Shown here: piece by piece, positions 38,214 through 58,290 of the stretch
How the letters are laid out: each line of letters opens with the position of its first letter
Position numbering within the stretch: position 1 is the stretch's first letter
From: an uncultured delta proteobacterium
GTDB lineage: Bacteria; Desulfobacterota; WTBG01; CAIYCZ01; CAIRTM01
NCBI GenBank assembly: GCA_963804955.1
Contig: CAWDSQ010000016.1
Span: forward strand, 32,001 to 96,000
Direction of reading: 5' to 3'
Length of the DNA stretch: 64,000 nt
Position numbers and translations under genes: made by a program
The notes under the pieces: model-generated
The model's database searches: none
Told to the model about the DNA's origin: nothing
The model's input: the letters and a program-made list of their open reading frames with translations, nothing else

Positions 38214-39203
38214 TTAGCCGCCTATTGCCGACATGGTTCTGCTGCATTTTTTATAGGTTGCTTCGCGGATTTCATGGCGCTGTGGCTTTGAGAGAATGGC
38301 CTGTTCGATGACGGCGCTCAGCTCGTCGTCGCAGCAGCCGCTCCGCAGCAGAGGCTTTAAGTCGATTTCATCATCGGAGAACAGGCATGCCCGGAGCTTG
38401 CCGTCGGCCGTGAGCCGCAGCCTGTTGCAGGTTTTGCAGAAATGGCTGCTCAGTGCCGTGATGAACCCGAGCTTGCCCTGCGCCCCTTCCAGCTGAAACA
38501 TTTTTGCCGGGCCGGCTTTTTCGTCGGCCTCAAGCGGGATGAGCGGCCCCAGCGCGCTGATTCTGTTCTGCAGTTCTTCGCTTGAAATGAACTGCGCTTC
38601 TTCCCACATGGTCTGGCCTGCTACGGGCATGAACTCGATGAAGCGGATATGCACCGGCCGGTCCAGGGTGAGCCGTGCAAATTCGACGGCCTCGTCGTCA
38701 TTGACATTGCGCATGGCAACCACGTTTATTTTGATGGGGGCAAAGCCTGCCTCGCGGGCTTTGCGGATGCCGGCAAACACGGCATTGATATCGCCGCCGC
38801 GGGTGATTGTTCTGTATTTCTCCGGGTCAAGGGTGTCGAGGCTGATATTGATTCGCCTCATGCCGGCCCGGTACAGCGCCTCAGCGCATGCTTCCAGCAG
38901 CACCCCGTTGGTGGTGAGGGAGAGCTCTGCTATGCCGGAAATCCCCTTCAGATCCCCGACAAAGTCGATGATGCCCTTGCGCACCAGGGGCTCGCCACCG
39001 GTGATCCTGATTTTGGTTATGCCTTTTTCAGCCGCGCTGCGGGCCACGCGCAGGATTTCCTCGTAACGCAGTATCGCGTCATGACCCATGGGCGAAATAC
39101 CCTCCTTGGGCATGCAGTAAATGCAGCGCAGGTTGCACCTGTCTGTCACCGAAATGCGCAGGTAGTTTATATGGCGGTTGAAGGTATCAAGCAGCTTCGG
39201 CAT
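38214..39203 (-). CDS. moaA: GTP 3',8-cyclase MoaA
   Basis: YLRISVTDRCNLRCIYC, RITGGEP, FCKTCNRLRLTADG...CL, C-terminal IGG. Confidence 0.98.
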   Translation of the reverse strand: MPKLLDTFNRHINYLRISVTDRCNLRCIYCMPKEGISPMGHDAILRYEEILRVARSAAEKGITKIRITGGEPLVRKGIIDFVGDLKGISGIAELSLTTNGVLLEACAEALYRAGMRRINISLDTLDPEKYRTITRGGDINAVFAGIRKAREAGFAPIKINVVAMRNVNDDEAVEFARLTLDRPVHIRFIEFMPVAGQTMWEEAQFISSEELQNRISALGPLIPLEADEKAGPAKMFQLEGAQGKLGFITALSSHFCKTCNRLRLTADGKLRACLFSDDEIDLKPLLRSGCCDDELSAVIEQAILSKPQRHEIREATYKKCSRTMSAIGG

Positions 39204-39253: not shown

Positions 39254-39281
39254 TGCATGCGCATAGACAGCGGTCATACCC

Positions 39282-39378
39282 GTCTCCTTCCCAAATCCGG
39301 GAGGCGCGGCCGTCGCCGGCCGTACCCTGTCGGTTAGACCTCCTGCGCTACTGGCGCAGGCTGAATAACTCCAGAGAC
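39282..39378 (-). ncRNA. Moco (molybdenum cofactor) riboswitch
   Basis: Minus strand GTCTCTGGAG...AGGGTACGGCCG-GCGA-CGGCCGCGCCTCCCGGATTTGGGAAGGAGAC: P1, AGGG-P4 with GNRA loop, CCUCCC...GGRAAGG; in the moaA leader. Confidence 0.85.
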
Positions 39379-39391
39379 TTTCTTCACTTAA

Positions 39392-46658: not shown

Positions 46659-46901
46659 CTACTCGGCCAGAACGGGAAGCAGATAATTAAAACCGTTTTT
46701 GACGGCTTCTTTAGCCTGCTTGCCGCTGATGACCTTCTTCTTCTCAAGATAGTTGACAAGCTTTTCATATCCTTCCAGCAAAATGCGGCGGTGGGTCTTT
46801 TCGTCGACCACGTTCTTGTCTTTCAGATAATCCAGAACGTCGAGCGTCTTGTCGTCTAGGTCTATGAACTTCTTGGCCTGCGCCTGTGTCATGATTGCCA
46901 T
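46659..46901 (-). CDS. Small 80-aa helical two-repeat protein in the AOR operon
   Basis: RBS AAGGAG then MAIMTQAQAKK...; internal repeat LDYLKDKNVV / VNYLEKKKVI. Confidence 0.75.
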   Translation of the reverse strand: MAIMTQAQAKKFIDLDDKTLDVLDYLKDKNVVDEKTHRRILLEGYEKLVNYLEKKKVISGKQAKEAVKNGFNYLLPVLAE

Positions 46902-46927
46902 AATATATCTCCTTTCGCTTATCAGAA

Positions 46928-48678
46928 TTAATAGTAGTATTTTTGTTTTTTCTTTCCAGCGTCGGACATATACTTCGGCTCTGAGCGGAGCGAGGTCTTT
47001 TGCAACGTAGTCAAGGCCGAGCATCTTCAGTCTCTTTTCCGAGGGGAAGCCGGTCTTGGCATCCCAGTCACGATACTTGTAGTACTTTTGCAGCATATCG
47101 TTGAGCGGGAAAACGACGCCGACGTTGGTCTGATAGTCCACGCCCTGGGGCATGGGCTCTTTGAGGAAACGCTCGGGAACCGTATCCTCGCGGGCGCCGG
47201 ACATGCAGCGCGTCCAGTACGCTCGTCCAAGCTGGAAAATACGCTCGCCGATCTCCTGGAACTCTTCCTCGGTGAAGTCAAGGCCGCGGTGCAGGCGTTC
47301 AGGTACTCTACCTGATCGGGGGTAAGCACGGCGTATGACCAGTGCGTGGTGAAACAGCACACCTGGGAACGGTGACTTTGTGTAGCCTTCTGGTTTTCTT
47401 CGTCGAGCAGTGCGGGCTTGTTGGCAGTCGTGGTGGGCTTTGCGCCGCGCTCGTAGCCGAGCAGCTTGGTGTTCAGGCCCGTGTACAGAGCGCCTGAAAG
47501 CTCGCAGCGAGCACAGTGAACGAAGATGATCGCAGCCGCCGCGGGTGCCCTGCGCAAATGACAGGCCGTAGCCGAAACCAAGGCCGCGGGGGTCATCGCC
47601 CGGCAGCGTCATGCCGCGGGTTGTGATGCTGTAATAGTGCGCATCTTGGGGCAGGCCCAGTTTGTCGGCAGCACGGTCTGCGCCTTCGGCAAGAATTGCG
47701 CCGAAGCCTTCTCTTTTTGCTATCATGGGGATAAGCTTATCCATAACCTCTTCATTACCCCATTCAAGCTCAAGACCAGCCAGTTCCTGGTGGTGATGAA
47801 GCCTCTCTGATACCATTCCATGGCAGTCGAGATAACACCGCCGCACTCGATGGCATCCATACCGTAATCATTGGTCAGCCGGGCATTGTGCCAGATATCG
47901 TTGGCGTCTTCGATGATACCGCAGCGAGCATGCGTGCTGGGGAACTGCATGCTCGTATTCGGGACCGCCGAACTCTTCACCTGCCCATTTGCCTTCCTGA
48001 TCTGCGTGAAACGGCCGCAACAGATGGGGCATGAAAAGCAGCCTTCGCGGTGCTTCAGCACGGTGGCGGCGATACCCTTCAGATTCTTGGAGCCGATAAC
48101 GCCGCCCGTGCCGGTACGGCCTGCAGCCCGCCAAACGTCATTGAAGGTACAGGCAAAACGCACCATGTTCTCACCTGCGGGGCCGATCAGCATGATGTGA
48201 ATGTCCTCGTCCCCGAGCTCTTCCTTAATCATCTGGTCCGCCTCGCGGGGGAACTTGCCCCAGAGGTGGCGGGCGTCGCGAATCTCGACCTTGTCGTCAT
48301 CGATCCAGATATACACGGGGTTCTTTGCCTTGCCCTGAACGATGATCTGGTCATAGCCGGCGAACTTTACTTCTGCGCCCCAGTGGCCGCCCATGTTGCC
48401 GAATCGCCGAAGCCGCCCGTGAGCGGGCTTTTGCAGGAAACGGTCACGCGGCCCGTTGAGGGGGCTGCGGTGCCGCTGATCGGGGCCCATGCCGAAGCAG
48501 ACGCGCGCTTCGGGATCATAGGGATCCAAGGTGCGCGGGCACCTCGTTATAGATTACGTCTGAATTGAAACCACGGCCGCCGATCCATTTGCGCCGGTAC
48601 TCATAGGAAAGGGGCTCTTTCTTGATTTCACCTGTGGTGAGATTAACTCTGAGTCTTTGTCCTGCCCCATCCGTACAT
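46928..48678 (-). CDS. aor: Tungsten-containing aldehyde:ferredoxin oxidoreductase family protein (AOR/WOR large subunit); frameshifted, apparent internal gap
   Basis: MYGW...RVNLTTG, WIGGRG, MGGHWGAEVKFAGYD, IGPAGEN, AAGRTG...GSKNLKG, CFSCPICC, GPEYE, YGMDAI, DDPRG, RGGCDH, YYKYRDWD. Confidence 0.88.
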
Positions 48679-48680
48679 AA

Positions 48681-49187
48681 TTAGGCCTCCTCTCCAACAC
48701 TTAGCGGCTTTAAGTCGTTCTTCCAGTTTTTCTCTGCGCTTGGCCTTGAAGGCGACGGTCGGCGTCGTGTAGGTAGATGGCGCCGCTCGGGCACCAGTCG
48801 GCGCAGACAGGGGCCTTCGGCCCGGCCTTCGCACAGAGTCGCACTTGAAGGCTTTGCCGGTTTTATAGTGCATGTTGATGGCGCCGAAAGGGGCATGCCA
48901 TCGCGCACTCTTTGCAGCCGATGCACTTATTGGCATCGATTTTGGTGATTCCTGCCGCGGCGTCCATGGCGCAGGCGCCGGTGGGGCACACATTGGCGCA
49001 GCGGCGCGTCGGTGCAGGCGTCGCAGCCCACGACAAAGGACTCGCCGAATCTCTCGTTACGAACACATGCGATGCGGGAAACCACCTTGCCGCATTCGCC
49101 GTCATGATACAGGGAACACCCTACGACGCAGCTTCTACAGCCGCTGCATTTTTCCTGGTGGTACACCAAGACTTTTTCATTGCTCAT
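48681..49187 (-). CDS. 4Fe-4S dicluster protein (AOR small subunit; DmsB/CooF-like), frameshifted
   Basis: CSGCRSCVVGC, CDACTDAPCANVCP, CIGCKECAMACPFG, KCD. Confidence 0.85.
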
Positions 49188-49324
49188 GTCAGTTACCCTC
49201 CTTTCAAAGGGATCAAAAAAAAGAAACTCTAGCCAGTATTGCCTTTAGTTTCCGGTTCCCCCACGGGAACCGTCGGTGAAAAAAAACACCTCCTTTCATT
49301 TTTTTTATTTTTTACAGAAACTCC

Positions 49325-49433
49325 AAAAAAAAGCCTGAAGGCACAGCTGTGCCTTCAGGCTTCCTTTGCAAAATTGGCGGGCCAAGCACACTGCTTGAGC
49401 CTTATCGAGTCCGCTTTAGAGCGGACTCGGAAG
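49325..49433 (-). ncRNA. Variant Moco/Wco-like riboswitch candidate with fused intrinsic terminator (copy 1)
   Basis: CTTCCGAGTCCGCTCTAAAGCGGACTCGATAAGGCTCAAGCAGTGTGCTTGGCCCGCCAATTTTGCAAAGGAAG + GCCTGAAGGCAC...GTGCCTTCAGGC-T8. Confidence 0.7.
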
Positions 49434-49717
49434 TCCTTAAAGTATGAGCATGTTTAATTACTTTTTTATGACGCAGAAGTCAATGGTTTTTTCACAACTT
49501 AGAAGGAGGTATATTTCAGCCTGATCAGCACCCATGCCTGTCCATCCAACCCGGGTATCGCACCCGCAAAAGCTCTGTTTGTCGTCATATGTTTTTTTGC
49601 TGCGCAGCTTACATCCTTTCTCTCTGTCCAGCCTTTCGGGAAACCTGCCACAGGCTGATAGCTGGCAGGCTTCATTAGAAGCGGCTTTTATGCAGTGTAT
49701 TTGTCTTTTTTTTCAGG

Positions 49718-50674
49718 TCACTGCTTTTCCTGCTGCAGTTTGCTGTCTGCCATTGAATCCAGGATGGCGACATCGGCTTTTTCGCGGAGCGCGTCGGTGA
49801 ACGTATGGAGAAGCGCCACTGAGCACATTTCATAGAGCCTGGCCTTCAGATCTTCTTCAATCAGCTCAAAGGGCCGCTTCCTGCCGCCCTCAATAATGGT
49901 CTTCACCATAAGAACATGCAGGCCTTCATCGGTTCGGATCACGCGGGAAATCTCGCCTTCCTTCATGCGGAAAGCAATGCCGTCAAGGATCGGATGAAAC
50001 TGGCCGGGCGTGACAAAGCCGAGGTTTGCGCCCTTGATCTCAGTGCCGTTCAGAGAGCCTTCGGCAGCGACTTTCTCGAAAGCCGCAGGGTCTGCAGCAA
50101 GCTTTTCAAGCTCCTGACGCACTTTTTTCTCTTCGGCGGGGTCGGCATAGCGGTCCAGCCTCTGCATGACGTGCAGCACGTTACGGACCTCGGGCCCCTG
50201 CATTTCATCAGGATGCTCATCATAATACCGCCGCGCCTCCTGCGAGGTCACGGGCTTTCGCTTGCCCTCCACGGCTGAAGCTGCGGTTTTATTTATTATG
50301 ATATCTTTCTGCACCTGGTCGCGGAACTCCGCCGGACTCAGCCCCGTCATCACGAGCATGGCCTTGAACTGCTGCTCGCTGTCGAATTCGGCAATCGAGC
50401 CGGCGGTCACCGTGGCAATTTCCTCATCCGTGGCGGCAATGCCCGTGCGGCAGCCTTCCTGGTACAGCAGCTCCCGCATAACAAGCTTATCGATCGCATG
50501 CTTGCGGGCAGCATACATTTCCTGCTGCGGCAGGCGCACTTTGCCCTTGCTGTCCTTGTACGGATCAAGCAGGGTCTGCAGGGCCGCTGCCACCTGGTAT
50601 TCGCTGATAACAACGCCATTGACCCGTGCGACAGGGGTCTTTTTTTGAGCTGGATTAATTGTATTTTGTTCCAT
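49718..50674 (-). CDS. SurA/PpiC-type peptidylprolyl isomerase (no obvious signal peptide)
   Basis: VARVNG, SurA N-domain, GANLGFV, EISRVIRTDEGLHVL. Confidence 0.8.
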   Translation of the reverse strand: MEQNTINPAQKKTPVARVNGVVISEYQVAAALQTLLDPYKDSKGKVRLPQQEMYAARKHAIDKLVMRELLYQEGCRTGIAATDEEIATVTAGSIAEFDSEQQFKAMLVMTGLSPAEFRDQVQKDIIINKTAASAVEGKRKPVTSQEARRYYDEHPDEMQGPEVRNVLHVMQRLDRYADPAEEKKVRQELEKLAADPAAFEKVAAEGSLNGTEIKGANLGFVTPGQFHPILDGIAFRMKEGEISRVIRTDEGLHVLMVKTIIEGGRKRPFELIEEDLKARLYEMCSVALLHTFTDALREKADVAILDSMADSKLQQEKQ

Positions 50675-50820
50675 ATGTTTTACCTGCGCAATTATTATTT
50701 ATGTGCCGCTCACACTTCATACAGTAACATATGTCTCAAATACTCCAGCATGTCCACAAAAAATTGTTCTCCTCGACGCGCTGGGGCAACACGTGAAAAG
50801 TGTACAAGATTCATAGTCCA

Positions 50821-50909
50821 GTAGGGGCAGACCTGCGTGTCTGCCAGAGGTCCGCACACCGGTCTGCCCCTACATAAAATTCTGGATGCCGGCTTTCGCC
50901 GGTATGACG
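50821..50909. repeat. GTAG REP doublet followed by a CGTC-type REP
   Basis: GTAGGGGCAGACCTGCGTGTCTGCC...GGTCTGCCCCTAC; CTGGATGCCGGCTTTCGCCGGTATGACG. Confidence 0.75.
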
Positions 50910-50997
50910 ATCTTGTTGGATTTTCGACTTTTTACGAGGGCAGCAAACCTGCTTTTTAATTTATTGAACCTTGAACACAAGACCCTGTAGTGAAGTA

Positions 50998-52296
50998 TCA
51001 GGCGCCTGTCCTTGACACAAACCCGCTCAACTGGTTAACCACAGGGAGAAGCTGCGTCTGAGGCTTTTTGATAAATTCTTTCCACGGCGTCTTTCCGACA
51101 ATAGCACCCCGGACAATGCCTGCTCCGTCCACATTGCCGACAGCCATAAAAGAAACAGGGATGCCGTCTTTCAGCTTTACCTTCTGGTAGATGCTATGAC
51201 TCTTAAAGGTGACTTCTTCAATGTCATCACCCTCTGTCTGAACATCGCCGATAGCAGTTATCCACATCTCGTAGAAGTCAACGCTGTTCATGGGGATATT
51301 GCCCTCATAGGTCCTCTGCTGCCCGGACATGTTGCACGCTGCGATTCTTCCCTGCGCTGCCGCCACTGGCCAGATGGCATTGTATATCCATTCCTTGCTG
51401 ACTATATGACGCGAGCGGCATACATCTCCTGCAGCATAGACATCCTCAACCGTGGTACGCTGGCAATCATCAACAGAGATTATCCGGTCCACCTTAACAT
51501 CTGTGCCTTCAAGAAAGTCCGTGTTTGCTTTAACACCAACAGAGGCAACAATAAAATCAGCTTCTTCTTCTCCGCCGTTTTTATACGTCACAACATACTT
51601 ATTTCCCTGTTTCCGCGTGTCAATAACAGAATTGTGAAGCTCAATATCAAGCAGTTCATGCCGGGTCATCCGTTCCCGAACCCGGGCGCTTGCCTCAAGA
51701 TCAGTCATGCGGCCAAGCACTGTTGGCAGCAGCTCGACTACCTTGACCTGCACTCCCTGCTTCACAAGACCATATGCTGTTTTCAGCCCGACAAATCCTG
51801 CGCCGATAATAATTGCTTTTTTACCCTTCTTTGCCCAGCCTTTCAGTTTGTTTGAATCATCATAATTCCTCATCCCTATAATACCTTCCGGGTCATAGGG
51901 GAAGCTTTTGAGAAAAATGGGTGATGAGCCTGTTGCTACAAGCAGGGTATCATAAGAAATCTTTTTCGTTCTTCCATTCTGTTTTGCATAGACAATCCGG
52001 TTTTTAGCATCGACTTTCTCAGCCCGGGTAGAAAGGTTCAGGTCTATATCACGACCAGTGTACCATTTTTCAGAATGTGACAGAAGGTGGCTCCGGGTAA
52101 CCATACCGCCAAGATAATAGGTAATAAGGCACCGTGAATAAGAGGGCACCGCCTCTTCACCAAGAATAACAATTTTATCTTCAGGATTCAGTGTCCGCAG
52201 AGTATCTGCCGCGGTAACAGCTGCAATGCAGTTACCGATAATAACATGCTGCCGCGCACTTTTTTTTACTTTGGTTTTATTGGCCTGTATTTTCAT
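50998..52296 (-). CDS. FAD/NAD(P)-dependent oxidoreductase (NirB-N/NROR/AorC-like)
   Basis: IIGN...YSRCL, LLVATGS, IIGAGFVG, VYAAGDV, WPVAAAQG. Confidence 0.9.
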   Translation of the reverse strand: MKIQANKTKVKKSARQHVIIGNCIAAVTAADTLRTLNPEDKIVILGEEAVPSYSRCLITYYLGGMVTRSHLLSHSEKWYTGRDIDLNLSTRAEKVDAKNRIVYAKQNGRTKKISYDTLLVATGSSPIFLKSFPYDPEGIIGMRNYDDSNKLKGWAKKGKKAIIIGAGFVGLKTAYGLVKQGVQVKVVELLPTVLGRMTDLEASARVRERMTRHELLDIELHNSVIDTRKQGNKYVVTYKNGGEEEADFIVASVGVKANTDFLEGTDVKVDRIISVDDCQRTTVEDVYAAGDVCRSRHIVSKEWIYNAIWPVAAAQGRIAACNMSGQQRTYEGNIPMNSVDFYEMWITAIGDVQTEGDDIEEVTFKSHSIYQKVKLKDGIPVSFMAVGNVDGAGIVRGAIVGKTPWKEFIKKPQTQLLPVVNQLSGFVSRTGA

Positions 52297-52772
52297 CTTC
52301 GTGTTATCCCCCGTATCTCTTTTATTTTTCTATTTCTTCTTTTTTTCACTGTCGTGCTAAAATCATCAAAAAACAGAGCTTCCCTGTCGCATACGGCAAC
52401 GCAGGGAGGATTATCTTTTTCTCCGCAAATCAGCGTGCACTTAAAAGCTTTTTCAAGGCTCATAACCGTCTTTATTGCTCCATGGGGACATACCATGTTG
52501 CACATAAAGCACCCAATGCACCTTTTTTCATCCTGAATAATAATTCCATCGTTGCCGCACTTCAGTGATTCACCAATGCAGGCATCCACGCAGGGTGTGT
52601 CTTCGCAGTGCTTGCACAGGCGAAGGAAAGGCCCCTGCGGGCTCTGGTACACTTTGATAAATGGTGCATACCCGGCAGAGTCGCTGCTTGATTTGCTGCA
52701 TTGTGCAGAGCAGGCGACTTCGCACTGGCGGCACACATCGCACTTATCAGGTCTAAAAACAAATGCTTTCAT
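52293..52772 (-). CDS. 4Fe-4S dicluster protein (CooF/HydN/AorA-like)
   Basis: CDVCRQCEVAC, CKHCEDTPCVDAC, CIGCFMCNMVCPHG, KCTLIC...CVAVC. Confidence 0.92.
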   Translation of the reverse strand: MKAFVFRPDKCDVCRQCEVACSAQCSKSSSDSAGYAPFIKVYQSPQGPFLRLCKHCEDTPCVDACIGESLKCGNDGIIIQDEKRCIGCFMCNMVCPHGAIKTVMSLEKAFKCTLICGEKDNPPCVAVCDREALFFDDFSTTVKKRRNRKIKEIRGITRR

Positions 52773-53415
52773 ATGTGTCTCCTCTACTTCAAATTATATT
52801 AATATCCTCTATGGCCATAAGAATACCATAGCTGTAAATTATTAAATGGCTGTCGTACAACTGATTCAAAAGGCGCTACTGTAATTGTACTAACTAAGAT
52901 TTAATCAGGCTTTTTGCGTGGAATACAGCGGGCAGGCTTTTTATCCCAATACCTCGACATTATCCACTTCCAATAAAACTAAGGGCAAGCACATTTGCCA
53001 TGCAGACATCTTTTGGCGCTTACTTAGCATACTAATAGTTTACCATGGCATCGAATATTGTGTCAACACGTAAAATTGTACGGGAACCGCTTACGCGATA
53101 TAAAATATTGATATTACTTGTTTAATATTTAAAAATACCTTCCGGCAAATATTGCAAAGGCCTTATTGTTCCCCAACTTTACCGGAGCGTGTTACAATGA
53201 AATAATGGTTATTCCGGGGAGCTGAAGGCGACGAAGAATCTCGTTCTTTAATCGACACAGCCTCTGAGGGAGAGGAGTAAGGTAAGGGTGTGAAAAAGTT
53301 TATTTTTAATAATTCATGAGCACCCTCTCTTCAAGAGAGGGAAATAATTTTATACATACACATCAGCGGACAACATGCCTCGTAATAGTACGTTTACTCT
53401 GCCGGGCTTTTATGT

Positions 53416-54207
53416 TTATTTCGCCATATCCCTATGGGAAAACTTTTGAGTGAGGTTGCGCCTTCGGCATTTCACGCACACATCTTTAAAGTCATCGGAT
53501 AAGTCTTTCAGCTTTCTGTGCACCTCATTTATGAGTGGCTCGGGTGCGACAACCTCTCCGCATATTCTGCACGTATGAAGCTCCACCGAAGTCTGCGACC
53601 AGGTTTCAACTGTCCGTGTGCCTTTCCTGTCGGAAATTTTTATTAATTTTGTCGGGCATACATCCGCGCATGCCGTACAGCCAAAGCATGTATCGGAAGG
53701 CTCCTGGTAGGCAGTGTTAACCCTTGTTTCCGGGCCGCGAGAGATAAAGTTTATAACCCCGGCCCCCACCGCCTCATTACAGACACGCACACACAAGCCG
53801 CAGAGCACGCACTTTTCTTCGGGTGCGCCCTTCTTTTTCTCCTCTTTGCGGGCAAAGCGGGACTCGGTGATACCGTATTTTGCCGCCATTTCCCTGATAT
53901 GATCAGAGTCAGGCGCCTCAGCAAGATAGAGCTCCATGAGGCCTTTCCTGATACCCCTGATTTCCGCAGTATCCGTTTTTACCTCAAGGCCCTCACTTGC
54001 TGCAAGGGTGCATGACGTAGTCATGCCCTTTCTGCCGCCAGCCACAACCTCTACCATGCACAGCCTGCATGCGCCAAAGGCGGCAAGCGCCTCATGATAG
54101 CAGAGGGCCGGAATGTCAATGCCTCCGCTTTTTGCAGCTTTAAGCACCGAGTCACCCTGCTCGGCCTGAATTTTTTTTCCATCAATAATAATTGTTACAT
54201 TCTTCAT
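53416..54207 (-). CDS. NuoG/HydA N-terminal-like 2Fe-2S/4Fe-4S protein without catalytic domain (BamI/BfuA-like)
   Basis: IPALC...GACRLC...SC; CVLCGLCVRVC; CFGCTACADVCP; C-terminal CRIC...CVKC. Confidence 0.88.
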   Translation of the reverse strand: MKNVTIIIDGKKIQAEQGDSVLKAAKSGGIDIPALCYHEALAAFGACRLCMVEVVAGGRKGMTTSCTLAASEGLEVKTDTAEIRGIRKGLMELYLAEAPDSDHIREMAAKYGITESRFARKEEKKKGAPEEKCVLCGLCVRVCNEAVGAGVINFISRGPETRVNTAYQEPSDTCFGCTACADVCPTKLIKISDRKGTRTVETWSQTSVELHTCRICGEVVAPEPLINEVHRKLKDLSDDFKDVCVKCRRRNLTQKFSHRDMAK

Positions 54208-54214
54208 AACGGTA

Positions 54215-57200
54215 TCAACCTTCTTTCACATCACATCGTAAGCATCGGGTAACTTCCACCCTGGCTACATCAGGGGGATAGCACAGGGTAACTTCATCAA
54301 AGCTGCATCGTCGTGCTTCAGGGGAAACCATGGGCATGGGATTACGGTTTCCTCCCTGGGGCTCAACTGAAACCTCATTGTTGTACCTTACTTTCTTCAA
54401 CAACTCGCTTAGCCGGTCTTTGCCGGTAAGCTTTTTGTCAACAGCCATGGCAAACCTCTTGCCCTGTCCCATGGCGCCGCTCACCGTTAAAGGACCGGTC
54501 ACAAGATCGCCCCCGGCATACACACCGGAGATATTTGTTTCAAGGGTGAATGGGTCTACGGCAATAGTGCCGTTGCGGTTCAGTGTGACACCAATCCTGC
54601 CGATAAAATCAGAATCACACACCTGGCCGATGGCGGCAATTACCGTGTCACAGTCATAGGTGATTGTCTCATTATCGGACACCGGCACCCTCCTGCCTGC
54701 AAGGTCATAGTCACCGGGCCGCATCCTTGTGACAATAATGCCTTTTACCCTGCCGCTGCGTGCGAGTATTTTATGCGGACCAACAAGGGTCACAATCTTA
54801 ATTCCTTCTTCCTCTGCCTGGCTGATTTCTTCTTCTTCTGCAGGCATATCAGCCTTTTCGCGGCGGTAGAGAATGGTTACATCAGCGCCGAGGCGCTTTG
54901 CTACACGTGCTGAATCCATTGCCACGTTTCCACCGCCGATGACCACGGTTTTAGCCCCTACGGCAACATCTTTGCCAAGATTGACATCGCGGAGAAACTC
55001 AACGCCGCTCAGCACGCCCAGTGCTTCCTCGCCCTGAACCCGAAGCGGACTTTCTTTCTGGGCGCCGATGGCAAGAAAGATCGCATCATGCTCCTTTTTA
55101 AGCGTCCGCAGGTTCTTATCCCTGCCAACGGTTGTATTAAATTTAAAGGTAACTCCAAGCTTCTTAATCAGCTCAACTTCCTGATTCACCACCTTCTTGG
55201 GAAGTCGGAATTCCGGAATACCCCAGGTCAGCATGCCGCCGGCTGATGGACAGGCATCATACACCGTGACTTTATGGCCAAGCCGGGCAAGGTAGTATGC
55301 AGCGGTTAGGCCTGCAGGTCCTGCACCCACGATACCTATCTTTTTACGGGTTGGTTTTAACTTCCGCGGCTCAACCTTCCGCAGTTTCTTTGCCTTTCCG
55401 TTGTTAAACATGTAATCAGCAACAAACCGGTGAACTTCCCGCGTGGAAACCGTATCATCAACCTCATTGCGTCTGCACCTGCCCTGGCAGGGATGATGGC
55501 ATACGCGACCCGTGCTTGCCGGAAGGGGATTATCCTGAAGGATGAATTCATAGGCATCGGCAATCCTCCCTTCCTTGAGAAGGGTCAAATACCCGGGAAT
55601 GTTCATGTTGATCGGGCAGGCATTTTCACAAGGCGCAACAAACAGGCTTGCGCATGCTCCTGCCTGGCACCGGTTGTTCCTGATATGGTTTTCATATTCA
55701 TTCTTAAAATATCTAAGTGTCGTAAGAACCGGGTTTGGTGCGCTCTGGCCCAGACCGCACAGGGACGTTTTTTTAATAAGATTGCCGAGCTCCTCAAGTA
55801 CGGACAGATCCTCCATCTTCCCTTTGCCGTTGCAGATGTCAGTAAGAAGGGCAAGCATATGCTTGAGGCCTTCCCGGCAGGGTGCGCACTTGCCGCAAGA
55901 CTCTTCCTTGGTAAAATCAACAAAGTAGCGTGCCGTGTCAACCATGCAGGTGTCTTCATCCACCACAACCACACCGCCGGATCCCATAATGGAGCCAAGC
56001 TTTGTCAGGCTTTCATAATCAATTGGTGACTCAAAGTATGGCGCGGGAATACAGCCGCCAGATGGGCCTCCTGTCTGCACTGCTTTAATCTGCCGGCCCT
56101 CTACGCCGCCGCCGCCGATGTCATACACAAGGGTCTTCAATGACGTGCCGAAAGCAATTTCAGCAAGCCCTGCCTGGCTTATTTTGCCGACAAGGGAGAG
56201 CACCTTGGTGCCCTTGCTTGTCTCGGTACCGGTCTGGCTGAACCATGCCCCGCCCCGGGATATAATAACGGGGATATTGCACCAAGTCTCAACATTGTTG
56301 ATGTTTGTTGGTTTACCCCAGAGGCCTTTTTCTGCGGGAAACGGTGGGCGGCTACGGGAGCGGCCGGCAAAGCCCTCTATGGAGGATATCAGGGCTGTTT
56401 CCTCGCCGCACACAAATGCGCCGGCGCCTTTCACCATAATAATATCAAAAGAGAAGCCTGAACCGAGTATGTTTTTCCCCAGGAACCCATATGCCCGCAG
56501 CTGCTTAAGCGCATTCTGCAGCCGCTTGATTGCCAGCGGATATTCTTCGCGAATATAAATGATGCCTTCACTTGCCCCGATTGCATATGCGCCGATGATC
56601 ATACCCTCTAGCAGCATGCACGGGTCGCTTTCCATTTCATTGCGGTTCATATAGGCGCCGGGATCGCCTTCATCAGCATTGCAGATGATATATTTCTTTT
56701 CCCCTGCGGCATTGCGGGCAAACTTCCATTTCTGGCCCGTCGGGAAGCCTGCGCCGCCTCGTCCGCGAAGCCCTGCTTTAAGCACTTCATCAATAATCGC
56801 TTCAGGGGTCATAGCCGTGAGTGCTGTGTGCAGGGCTGAGAATCCGCCAACACCAATATACTCATCAATATCTTCAGGGTTGATAAACCCCGTATTTCTC
56901 AAAATAATCTTTGTCTGCTTTGAGAAAAACGGCACGTCGGCATAGGCCGTGATGTCGGCAAAACCTTTGCCATACTCAAGGACTGCGCCTTTTGTAATGT
57001 GATCCCATCTCTCAACCCGGCAGAGGGCTTTTTCCCGGCAGACATCATTTTTGACAAGCTTGTCAAGTATGGCCTTTGCATCTTCGGGCACAACACCTGA
57101 ATAAATAATCATCGGCATATCAGGAATGCTTACATTTACCAGGGGCTCCCTGGTGCAGTAGCCGATGCAGCCAACCTTGGTAAGCACCACATCAAGCTTT

Positions 57201-57373
57201 CTGCTCTTGATCTCTTCTTCCAGCGCGCGCATCACTTTATCTGCGCCTGCGGCAATTCCGCAGCTGGCGTAGCCCACTGCAATTCGGGGCTTTCCAGGGA
57301 AAATCTTCTTTAACCCTTCGTCTTTAATCTGCTTTAGATATGCTTGATGATGTAGTTTCACTTTTCTTCCCAC
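54215..57373 (-). CDS. NuoF/HydB-like FMN-NADH subunit fused to a GltD/NfnB-like FAD-NADP(H) domain
   Basis: Trx-like 2Fe-2S N-terminus; GRGGAGFPTG, NADEGDPGA, FVCGEETAL, ESCGKCAPC; then CENACP...GRVCHHPC, GAGPAG, GGGNVAMD, YRR, CLRCD. Confidence 0.92.
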   Translation of the reverse strand: MGRKVKLHHQAYLKQIKDEGLKKIFPGKPRIAVGYASCGIAAGADKVMRALEEEIKSRKLDVVLTKVGCIGYCTREPLVNVSIPDMPMIIYSGVVPEDAKAILDKLVKNDVCREKALCRVERWDHITKGAVLEYGKGFADITAYADVPFFSKQTKIILRNTGFINPEDIDEYIGVGGFSALHTALTAMTPEAIIDEVLKAGLRGRGGAGFPTGQKWKFARNAAGEKKYIICNADEGDPGAYMNRNEMESDPCMLLEGMIIGAYAIGASEGIIYIREEYPLAIKRLQNALKQLRAYGFLGKNILGSGFSFDIIMVKGAGAFVCGEETALISSIEGFAGRSRSRPPFPAEKGLWGKPTNINNVETWCNIPVIISRGGAWFSQTGTETSKGTKVLSLVGKISQAGLAEIAFGTSLKTLVYDIGGGGVEGRQIKAVQTGGPSGGCIPAPYFESPIDYESLTKLGSIMGSGGVVVVDEDTCMVDTARYFVDFTKEESCGKCAPCREGLKHMLALLTDICNGKGKMEDLSVLEELGNLIKKTSLCGLGQSAPNPVLTTLRYFKNEYENHIRNNRCQAGACASLFVAPCENACPINMNIPGYLTLLKEGRIADAYEFILQDNPLPASTGRVCHHPCQGRCRRNEVDDTVSTREVHRFVADYMFNNGKAKKLRKVEPRKLKPTRKKIGIVGAGPAGLTAAYYLARLGHKVTVYDACPSAGGMLTWGIPEFRLPKKVVNQEVELIKKLGVTFKFNTTVGRDKNLRTLKKEHDAIFLAIGAQKESPLRVQGEEALGVLSGVEFLRDVNLGKDVAVGAKTVVIGGGNVAMDSARVAKRLGADVTILYRREKADMPAEEEEISQAEEEGIKIVTLVGPHKILARSGRVKGIIVTRMRPGDYDLAGRRVPVSDNETITYDCDTVIAAIGQVCDSDFIGRIGVTLNRNGTIAVDPFTLETNISGVYAGGDLVTGPLTVSGAMGQGKRFAMAVDKKLTGKDRLSELLKKVRYNNEVSVEPQGGNRNPMPMVSPEARRCSFDEVTLCYPPDVARVEVTRCLRCDVKEG

Positions 57374-57840
57374 TCATATTGTTTCAGAATTTCAGGTAGT
57401 TTTTTAGGCGTTAAATAGCCATAAATAGTGCCGTCAACCATCATCACCGGCGCAAGACTGCAACACCCGAGACAGCGGGTGCTTTCAATCGTAAACAGCT
57501 TGTCATCGGTTGTGATTGACTTTTCATTTCTTTCTTCATGCCTAATCTTTAAAAGATCAAGCATGGCAGCCTTAAGCCTTGGCCCGCCTCGAACATGGCA
57601 ACTTGTACCTTCACAAACGGTGATTATGTGCTTACCCCGGGGTTTCAGGCTGAAGGCAGCATAAAACGTGCAGACGCTGAAGAGCTGAGAAAACGGAACC
57701 CCCATCTTCTCCCCCACATACTGCATTGCTTCTTTTGGCACATACCCTTCCTCTTCCTGAATTGCCTCCAGTGTGGACAAAACCTGCCCGGGCATATCCA
57801 CATACTGCTCAATAATTTTATCCAGTTTTCTTGCATCCAT
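57358..57840 (-). CDS. NuoE/HydC-like 2Fe-2S subunit
   Basis: VCTFY...VCEGTSCHVRG...CLGCCSLAP. Confidence 0.95.
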   Translation of the reverse strand: MDARKLDKIIEQYVDMPGQVLSTLEAIQEEEGYVPKEAMQYVGEKMGVPFSQLFSVCTFYAAFSLKPRGKHIITVCEGTSCHVRGGPRLKAAMLDLLKIRHEERNEKSITTDDKLFTIESTRCLGCCSLAPVMMVDGTIYGYLTPKKLPEILKQYEWEEK

Positions 57841-58078
57841 GGCTTACGTCTCTACTTTTGAATTAATACATTGATAAGACGAACAAATCAAAAAATCAGC
57901 TTTCCATTTATTTGTTCACACCACTCTACAAAGAACACCAGGGGGAATACGCCGGCATTCAAAAATCAGGCTGTCAATGTCTGATATCCTGCGGGTAAGC
58001 GGGGGCGACGAGAACTACCTCTTGTCCGTCACCAGTCCGATCCACCACCCGACAACAAACCATCGCAAAAAACTGTCG

Positions 58079-58184
58079 AAAAAAGCCTGAAGACACATCC
58101 CGATAATCTTCAGGCTTCCTTTGCACTATGGCGGGCCGGATATCTATCCGGCCTTTTCGGCCCACACCTAAAGGAACTCAGAAA
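58079..58184 (-). ncRNA. Variant Moco/Wco-like riboswitch candidate with fused intrinsic terminator (copy 2)
   Basis: TTTCTGAGTTCC...GGGCCGAAAAGGCCGGATAGATATCCGGCCCGCCATAGTGCAAAGGAAG + GCCTGAAGA...TCTTCAGGC-T6. Confidence 0.65.
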
Positions 58185-58290
58185 TCCCTATAAAGTAAGG
58201 TTTTTGTATATTTCAAAATATTAATCGTTTGTATATAAAACCAGCGTAACGCTGTCAACTTTTTTTATCATATTTCTTCCCTAGTCACCA

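Follow-up and report, generated by a model that had tools for sequence, protein, structure and literature searches.

Introduction

The Moco (molybdenum cofactor) RNA motif, Rfam family RF01055, is the closest described relative of the elements reported here. Regulski et al. (2008) counted a GNRA tetraloop and its receptor as part of its conserved structure; of the 176 members, 58 lack the P3 stem and are tied to tungsten genes (PMC2408646). Such a P3-less tungsten cofactor (Tuco or Wco) riboswitch, itself a member of RF01055, precedes worSLXABC in Eubacterium limosum, where it was proposed to act on translation via a sequestor of the ribosome-binding site (PMC11725836), and the WorABCSL enzyme is itself described (PMC12318220; PDB 9MQX). 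A P3-less pterin riboswitch as regulator of a tungsten aldehyde oxidoreductase (AOR) has therefore been published before (PMC11725836). Here, we analyze two short leaders, copy 1 and copy 2, on the minus strand of a 64,000-nucleotide (nt) stretch from an uncultured delta proteobacterium of the phylum Desulfobacterota (GenBank assembly GCA_963804955.1, contig CAWDSQ010000016.1, positions 32,001 to 96,000), which we refer to as the window, together with their relatives.

With the P3-lacking Tuco/Wco subgroup (RF01055; PMC2408646), these leaders share the order of the elements, the conserved nucleotides of junctions and loops, the lack of P3, the link to genes of tungsten enzymes and, as in some RF01055 members, an intrinsic terminator as expression platform. 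They differ in having neither a GNRA tetraloop on P4 nor a receptor in P2, in their length (70-88 nt compared with about 90-120 nt), in scores that mostly fall under the RF01055 cut-off, in a terminator that overlaps P1 in nearly every copy, in controlling cofactor users only and in being found in one order among the genomes searched. As in E. limosum (PMC11725836), a P3-less pterin riboswitch leads tungsten aldehyde oxidoreductase genes with a polyferredoxin and a Bfu-type partner module, and the proteins of the window system have chains A, E, D and B of 9MQX among their best solved matches. Here, however, control is predicted to be transcriptional and not translational, the enzyme modules are split over two riboswitch-led units, and a GltD/NfnB-like half is joined to the NuoF-like subunit in one protein. 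Moco-II (RF01713; PMC2864571) is likewise a candidate cis-regulator near molybdenum-cofactor genes, but its model matched none of the three compact copies in this genome (all 4227 Rfam models, E up to 10).

Judged by their sequences, the leaders are a compact variant inside the P3-less, tungsten-type branch of the Moco/Tuco class. We consider it probable that they are compact riboswitches of this type which act as ON switches through an overlap with their terminators and gate both modules of one tungsten enzyme system. In the following, we describe their structure, distribution and genes, and weigh this reading against others.

Two compact leaders in the window

The two aptamers and a standard member that serves as comparator are:

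49357..49436, minus strand: copy 1 aptamer, 80 nt (sequence read; minimum free energy fold)
49436-49435 + 49433-49429 / 49364-49358, minus strand: P1 of copy 1 (same fold)
49425-49420 / 49415-49410, minus strand: P2 of copy 1 (same fold)
49401-49392 / 49388-49380, minus strand: P4 of copy 1 (same fold)
49378-49377 / 49369-49368, minus strand: P5 of copy 1 (same fold)
58112..58187, minus strand: copy 2 aptamer, 76 nt, with the core of copy 1 (sequence read; matches of models R1 and R2, see below)
39268..39388, minus strand: standard Moco riboswitch upstream of moaA (38214-39203), RF01055 38.5 bits; comparator

Read on the minus strand, both leaders contain UUC(C/U)GAG, CGA(U/A)AAGG, a variable hairpin, GGCCCGCC, a loop of 5-6 nt and GCAAAGGAAGCCUGAAG, and both end with the hairpin return strand CUUCAGGC followed by U6-8. 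Their P4 arms differ in sequence, yet pair: CAAGCA/UGCUUG in copy 1 and CCGGAU/AUCCGG in copy 2, where the arms are GGCCGGAU/AUCCGGCC. The minimum free energy fold of copy 1 yields all four helices (z = -4.5). The earlier note on this DNA, which had been made from the sequence alone, described the same blocks and the differing but pairing P4 stems, and it was right in both; only its estimate of about 70-75 nt is slightly short of the 80 and 76 nt given by the models. Its observation of a canonical Moco aptamer in the moaA leader holds as well, and the MoaA protein encoded at 38214-39203 carries the Pfam domains Radical_SAM and Mob_synth_C.

R1, a covariance model built from copy 1 as its single sequence, finds copy 2 with 36.5 bits (E 1.6e-08, with every window position scored), while the next unrelated match in the window reaches 13.2 bits (E 0.19); the likeness of the two copies therefore exceeds chance. 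A third copy lies in the same genome on contig C13 (R1 52.7 bits, E 1.4e-11). Two other R1 matches were judged spurious, namely the antisense of the copy 1 P2 (22 bits) and a site on contig C1 with many unpaired positions (18.3 bits). The single-sequence model was used in place of a MAFFT alignment of the two copies only, in which P2 and P4 were mis-registered. A second covariance model, R2, was built from 31 matches and scores copy 1 with 81.1 bits (copy 1 itself being part of the model) and copy 2 with 62.4 bits.

A family found in one order

R1 has matches in 18 of 101 related genomes, the window's own included. Apart from this genome, they fall into 13 of 16 genomes of the window's family and all 4 of the sister family, with none in the 80 genomes elsewhere. 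Across the 21 genomes of the order, R2 yields 37 strong matches (48.9-83.3 bits, 70-88 nt) in 18 genomes, with up to five copies per genome, and 14 weaker ones of about 100 nt each; it has no strong match in the other 21 genomes of the class, nor in 146 genomes sampled across the rest of the phylum. Among the genomes searched, the compact family is restricted to this one lineage. A strict pattern scan of metagenome contigs returned 54 pattern matches in 53 stretches and added 43 strong members (R2 at least 57.8 bits), which represent 38 distinct sequences, three of them identical to genome copies. A scan of the whole genome collection with the 3' motif gave at least 117 stretches; 10 of the 80 that were fetched are true members (R2 at least 59 bits), and the others are chance matches, mostly in records from other phyla. 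In one relative (L198), a single ferredoxin-AOR operon is preceded by two compact riboswitches in tandem (237-308 and 377-449), which lie 69 nt apart and have a terminator each.

Upstream of the element, there is no sequence conservation. TACTTT, which had been noted just upstream, does stand directly 5' of both window leaders, but was dropped as a common promoter box, since it is not kept across the family: a TAnnnT box 3-10 nt upstream is found in only 16 of the 37 members. A simple consensus promoter/terminator scanner listed no minus-strand promoter at the two leaders.

Structure and covariation

The compact core consists of P1, GAG, P2, CGAWAAGG, P4, CCC, P5 (whose loop is of the GUGUUU type), AAA and the second strand of P1. 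There is no P3: in every aligned row, P2 and P4 are joined by the 8-nt CGAWAAGG. On an alignment that was fitted to the model, 93.6% of the pairing cells of the 37 genome copies hold standard pairs, compared with 78.7% in shuffles and at most 53.2% when the pairing partners are slid, and double-sided changes occur in 14 of 24 pairs; none of 500 shuffles reached the observed values. By helix, compensatory changes affect 6/6 pairs of P2, 6/9 of P4 and 2/7 of P1, while P5 is invariant. Because this alignment had been fitted to the model, the test was repeated with plain MAFFT and RNAalifold, an independent route that led to the same four helices and showed compensatory changes in 10 of 19 pairs. 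P2 and P4 thus covary strongly. The earlier note had held that missing covariation, or homologues outside leader positions, would speak against a riboswitch; the family shows strong covariation, and all assessable homologues stand in leaders.

Relation to the Moco RNA motif

The RF01055 model aligns to copy 1 over its full length with the P3 positions deleted, at 21.1 bits, compared with a gathering cut-off of 36 bits; copies 2 and 3 have no RF01055 match at E up to 10. The strong match to the standard model that would have removed the novelty of these leaders is accordingly not there. Among 21 compact copies from relatives, one passes the cut-off (37.2 bits), nine reach 23-33 bits and the remaining 11 have no match at E up to 1. 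In the reverse direction, R2 also recognizes standard members in other parts of the phylum, with 23-49 bits: in 20 loci tested, 23 of 25 such matches are RF01055 matches and 22 of these pass the cut-off, the cross-matched sequences scoring 35.6-77.5 bits with RF01055.

Compact and long forms have a common core of CCGAG, CGAWA(A/G)GG, CC(C/U), a (C)GUGUUUG loop on P5 and AAAGGA. The compact copies show the architecture of the RF01055 core, with P1, GAG, P2, A(A/G)GG, P4, CC(U/C), P5 with a YGUNUUUG-type loop and AAAGGA, and they have both marks of the tungsten-type subgroup, the missing P3 stem and the association with tungsten-cofactor genes. This agrees with the original proposal of Moco/Wco-type aptamers without P3 and GNRA loop. 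The same proposal had named AAGG and the GC/GC pairs of P5 as replacements that set the leaders apart, but both occur in standard members: AAGG is present in long forms that score 52-77 bits with RF01055, and GC/GC pairs in P5 appear in Thermus and Desulfotomaculum rows of the 2008 seed alignment (PMC2408646). GC/GC in P5 together with a UUCC/GGAA P1 is also found in long, P3-less and tetraloop-bearing forms of another family of the phylum (L170, L179, L166, L169, L174 and L175). These six score low with RF01055 themselves (35.6-54.6 bits, two without a match at E up to 0.1). In general, the RF01055 model under-detects this core variant.

The true distinction of the compact form is peripheral. 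Its P2 and P4 are cut to plain hairpins without GNRA tetraloop or receptor: none of the 37 genome copies and none of the 38 distinct metagenome copies caps P4 with a GNRA tetraloop, compared with 24 of 28 long forms; P2 is a bare hairpin, and the median length of its region is 16-18 nt, compared with 31.5 nt in long forms; and the CCUAAG..UAUGG receptor is found in long forms only. The compact element is consequently a homologous variant, yet one that falls outside the formal definition of the family on two points, the RF01055 score cut-off and the tetraloop-receptor pair. In the supplementary alignment of PMC2408646, a PDF whose text is split into blocks so that a miss is possible, the compact signature is absent (CGAAAAGG 0 and GCAAAGGAAG 0 occurrences, GCCCGCC in flanks only), and we found no account of a tetraloop-less compact form in the literature on Moco and tungsten-cofactor riboswitches outside subscription journals.

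Genes behind the compact leaders

All 36 assessable genome copies (one of the 37 lies at a contig end) are in sense orientation and immediately upstream of a small, coherent gene set. A WorS-like polyferredoxin and a 655-amino-acid (aa) AOR follow in 23 cases; a 608-aa AOR with a MoaD/ThiS-like gene and Hdr-like genes in three; a Tat-signal, selenocysteine-type formate dehydrogenase with FdhB and cytochrome b in six; NuoE-like and NuoF-GltD proteins in two; and a ferredoxin, an AorC-like FAD oxidoreductase and a SurA/PpiC-like protein in two. Hence, 32 of the 36 precede pterin enzymes (26 AOR, 6 formate dehydrogenase) and the other four precede redox-partner modules of AOR, while genes for cofactor biosynthesis or transport follow none of the 36. 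By contrast, the three standard RF01055 members of the same genome lead moaA, a ModA-type binding protein and a molybdopterin dehydrogenase. Two of these three lie on contig C16 outside the window (L001 and L002; 54.8 and 44 bits), one before the ModA/TupA-type binding-protein gene and the other before the molybdopterin-dehydrogenase cluster (FAD_binding_5 + Fer2). In most loci with downstream DNA, the 655-aa AOR is followed by a conserved protein of 80-88 aa (MA.MTKAQAKKF...; e.g. L181 2877-3119), which belongs to no Pfam family.

In the window, the two leaders are followed by these genes:

46662..49187, minus strand: operon led by copy 1 (blastx against intact orthologues; Pfam)
about 48684-49187, minus strand: WorS-like 4Fe-4S polyferredoxin (best solved match of the orthologue 9mqx_E, WorS)
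about 46941-48665, minus strand: AOR-family tungsten enzyme (Pfam AFOR_N + AFOR_C; best solved matches of the orthologue 1aor and 9mqx_D, WorL)
46662-46901, minus strand: conserved 80-aa protein (no Pfam family)
49718..57840, minus strand: genes led by copy 2 (Pfam; best solved matches)
57358-57840, minus strand: NuoE/WorC-like 2Fe-2S protein (Pfam)
54215-57373, minus strand: NuoF/BfuB fused to a GltD/NfnB-like half, 1052 aa (best solved matches of the N-terminal half include 9n5u_B and 9mqx_B)
53416-54207, minus strand: WorA-like 263-aa Fe-S protein (9mqx_A, WorA, at 1.1e-40)
52293-52772, minus strand: 4Fe-4S ferredoxin (Pfam)
50998-52296, minus strand: AorC-like FAD oxidoreductase (8c0z_E, AorC of Aromatoleum AorABC, at 1.5e-41)
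49718-50674, minus strand: SurA/PpiC-like protein (Pfam)

By these matches, copy 1 leads a WorS/WorL-like catalytic unit and copy 2 its WorC/B/A- and AorC-like electron-transfer partners. The genes do encode cofactor-using redox enzymes, as first noted, but the two separate redox operons of that description are better read as two modules of one WorABCSL/AorABC-like tungsten enzyme system. The 1052-aa fusion combines an N-terminal BfuB/NuoF-type part (2Fe-2S, FMN and 4Fe-4S) with the GltD/NfnB-like C-terminal half; in the best-matching solved Nfn-Bfu and formate dehydrogenase complexes, the two halves are separate chains.

A further feature lies between the WorA-like gene and the ferredoxin/AorC-like pair, in the 640-nt gap 52773-53415:

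52905..52965, minus strand: probable relic of another copy, now decayed, 5' of the ferredoxin/AorC-like pair

It keeps the pieces GGAUAAUG..GCCUGCCCGC..GCAAAAAGCCUGA, has lost P1 and the terminator and is not picked up by R1 at E up to 10, but aligns to intact leaders at the same position in two relatives. We regard it as the probable remnant of another compact riboswitch. In a relative (L182), the ferredoxin/AorC-like pair has its own intact copy, directly upstream of the AOR unit. A promoter-like site (TTGACA-17-TAAACT) is found about 90 nt upstream of the relic.

Several genes of this genome are split by frameshifts: the ferredoxin and AOR genes behind copy 1 (46659-49244, minus strand; the first two genes of the operon), the formate dehydrogenase gene on C13 (L008 6004-9094) and the ModA-type gene in L001. 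Their orthologues in relatives are intact, and RNA contigs of relatives lack single bases at 48526, 48665, 48696, 48774, 48809, 48838, 48887 and 49002. The breaks therefore point to single-base insertion errors of the assembly, not to pseudogenes. The metatranscriptome contigs of relatives (four sets) span the ferredoxin gene, not the leader.

Terminators and predicted switching

Each leader ends in a hairpin of -24 to -30 kcal/mol, followed by U6-8:

49325..49360, minus strand: intrinsic terminator of copy 1, 12-bp GC-rich stem, AGCU loop, U8 tail (folding)
58079..58115, minus strand: intrinsic terminator of copy 2, GCCUGAAGA...UCUUCAGGC, 11-nt loop, U6 tail (folding)

A simple consensus scanner, which allows loops of up to 8 nt (the copy 2 loop has 11), listed neither. 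In copy 1, GCC at 49360-49358 forms both the first three bases of the terminator stem and the last three of the P1 3' strand, and the terminator of copy 2 shares its GCC with P1 in the same way. This holds across the family: in 36 of the 37 genome copies, the GCC at the end of the P1 3' strand is also base-paired in the next hairpin, a U-rich tail follows in all 37, and both features are present in 42 of the 43 metagenome copies. The standard members of this genome have their terminators 15-25 nt beyond P1, without overlap (about 25 nt in the moaA leader).

As the bases are common to both, P1 and the base of the terminator are mutually exclusive, and a ligand that stabilizes P1 can only reduce termination. 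In the ground state of the genome's three copies, the terminator is formed, and forcing P1 costs 10.3-14.0 kcal/mol; with P1 enforced, a shortened hairpin remains, 3 nt away from the U tract. Since the terminator is much more stable than P1, the switch would have to act kinetically. The ON direction and the ligand are what we infer from this arrangement. Without ligand, the hairpin that begins inside the P1 3' strand would form and, together with the U tract, halt transcription. Binding of a pterin cofactor, most likely in its tungsten-loaded form, would hold P1 shut, including its outer GG/CC pairs; the three basal G-C pairs of the terminator beside the U tract would then be blocked and RNA polymerase would probably read on. 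In the window, the two switches would gate the two modules of one enzyme system. The overlap that the earlier note had seen, and the ON switch that it took this to fit, thus reappear as a family-wide arrangement.

Discussion

Several observations weigh against this interpretation. None of the three copies of the genome appears among its genome-wide RF01055 matches, as every one misses the cut-off. The P2 of copy 2 is weak or poorly formed, both in its fold and in the R1 alignment, and the first pair counts come from the model-fitted alignment. P1 and P5 are near-invariant; the outer GG/CC pairs of P1 are conserved but never covary, so that the meaning of the terminator overlap rests on conservation and not on covariation. 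Finally, apart from pairs to the U tract, only 3 nt overlap, and P1 is much less stable than the terminator.

The cofactor of AOR enzymes is a tungsten bis-pterin, and formate dehydrogenases use a bis-molybdopterin guanine dinucleotide cofactor. The simplest common signal may be a precursor common to both, such as a metal-loaded pyranopterin. One may ask instead, as the earlier note did, whether the compact form is a separate specificity class with another ligand than ordinary P3-less Moco RNAs. Such a ligand could be a tungsten cofactor in bis-pterin or nucleotide-modified form, the molybdenum-loaded pterin as opposed to the tungsten-loaded one, or another redox cofactor. The division of labor in the genome is what one would expect in that case, with standard members on moaA, the ModA-type gene and molybdopterin dehydrogenase and the compact form alone on AOR, formate dehydrogenase and their partners, as is a set so tightly conserved and so poorly recognized by RF01055 (1 of 21 at the cut-off, 11 of 21 without a match at E up to 1). 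However, no core nucleotide is peculiar to this set. CGAWAAGG, CCC/CCU, the P5 loop and AAAGGA all recur in long forms above the RF01055 cut-off, ordinary P3-less members above it share all conserved nucleotides of the junctions and loops, and the GC/GC P5 occurs with the UUCC/GGAA P1 in tetraloop-bearing long forms, as well as in the 2008 alignment. The differences are confined to peripheral elements of tertiary contact. Elements of this kind vary in other riboswitch classes while the ligand stays the same. With its core unchanged from that of standard members, nothing about the compact form points to a new ligand, and we consider a separate class unlikely. We are just as doubtful that, in genomes whose standard Moco and P3-less RNAs serve biosynthesis, transport and molybdenum enzymes, the compact form is the only sensor of the tungsten-loaded (or otherwise matured) cofactor and the activator of tungsten enzymes. 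If it did, the loss of tetraloop and receptor and the fixed GC/GC-UUCC core would mark a changed specificity or tuning, beyond a smaller scaffold.

It also seems quite improbable that the leaders are attenuators run by a protein or small RNA in place of a cofactor, OFF switches or simply unregulated terminators. The 3' block GGAAGCCUGA and the terminator arms, unusually invariant across genera, could serve as a binding site, and the scarce covariation of P1 would fit this. Yet the core has its homologues in a riboswitch class whose sensing of the cofactor is backed by genetic evidence (PMC2408646), and the gene set consists of cofactor users only. An OFF switch would require an anti-terminator, of which none is apparent. 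A ligand-held P1 can only weaken termination, owing to the shared bases. Lastly, a dispersed repeat or mobile element without regulatory role, as the several copies per genome and their near-identical 3' ends might suggest, is effectively refuted by the 36 of 36 assessable copies in sense directly upstream of coherent genes, by compensatory substitutions in the stems between fixed junctions and by the unconserved sequence 5' of the element.

We therefore return to compact, cofactor-responsive ON switches. If correctly assigned, they indicate that a Moco/Tuco aptamer can apparently work without the tetraloop-receptor clamp, at 70-88 nt, and the compact form could conveniently serve structural studies and the design of cofactor biosensors as a minimal construct. 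They add about 75 distinct sequences wired as predicted transcriptional ON switches to a class in which activation has so far been proposed, not demonstrated. The Rfam model misses most of this branch, which means that the tungsten regulons of these sediment bacteria are under-annotated. At the locus itself, if the ON logic is true, both WorABCSL/AorABC-like modules and the tungsten/molybdenum formate dehydrogenase would be made only when the cofactor is present.

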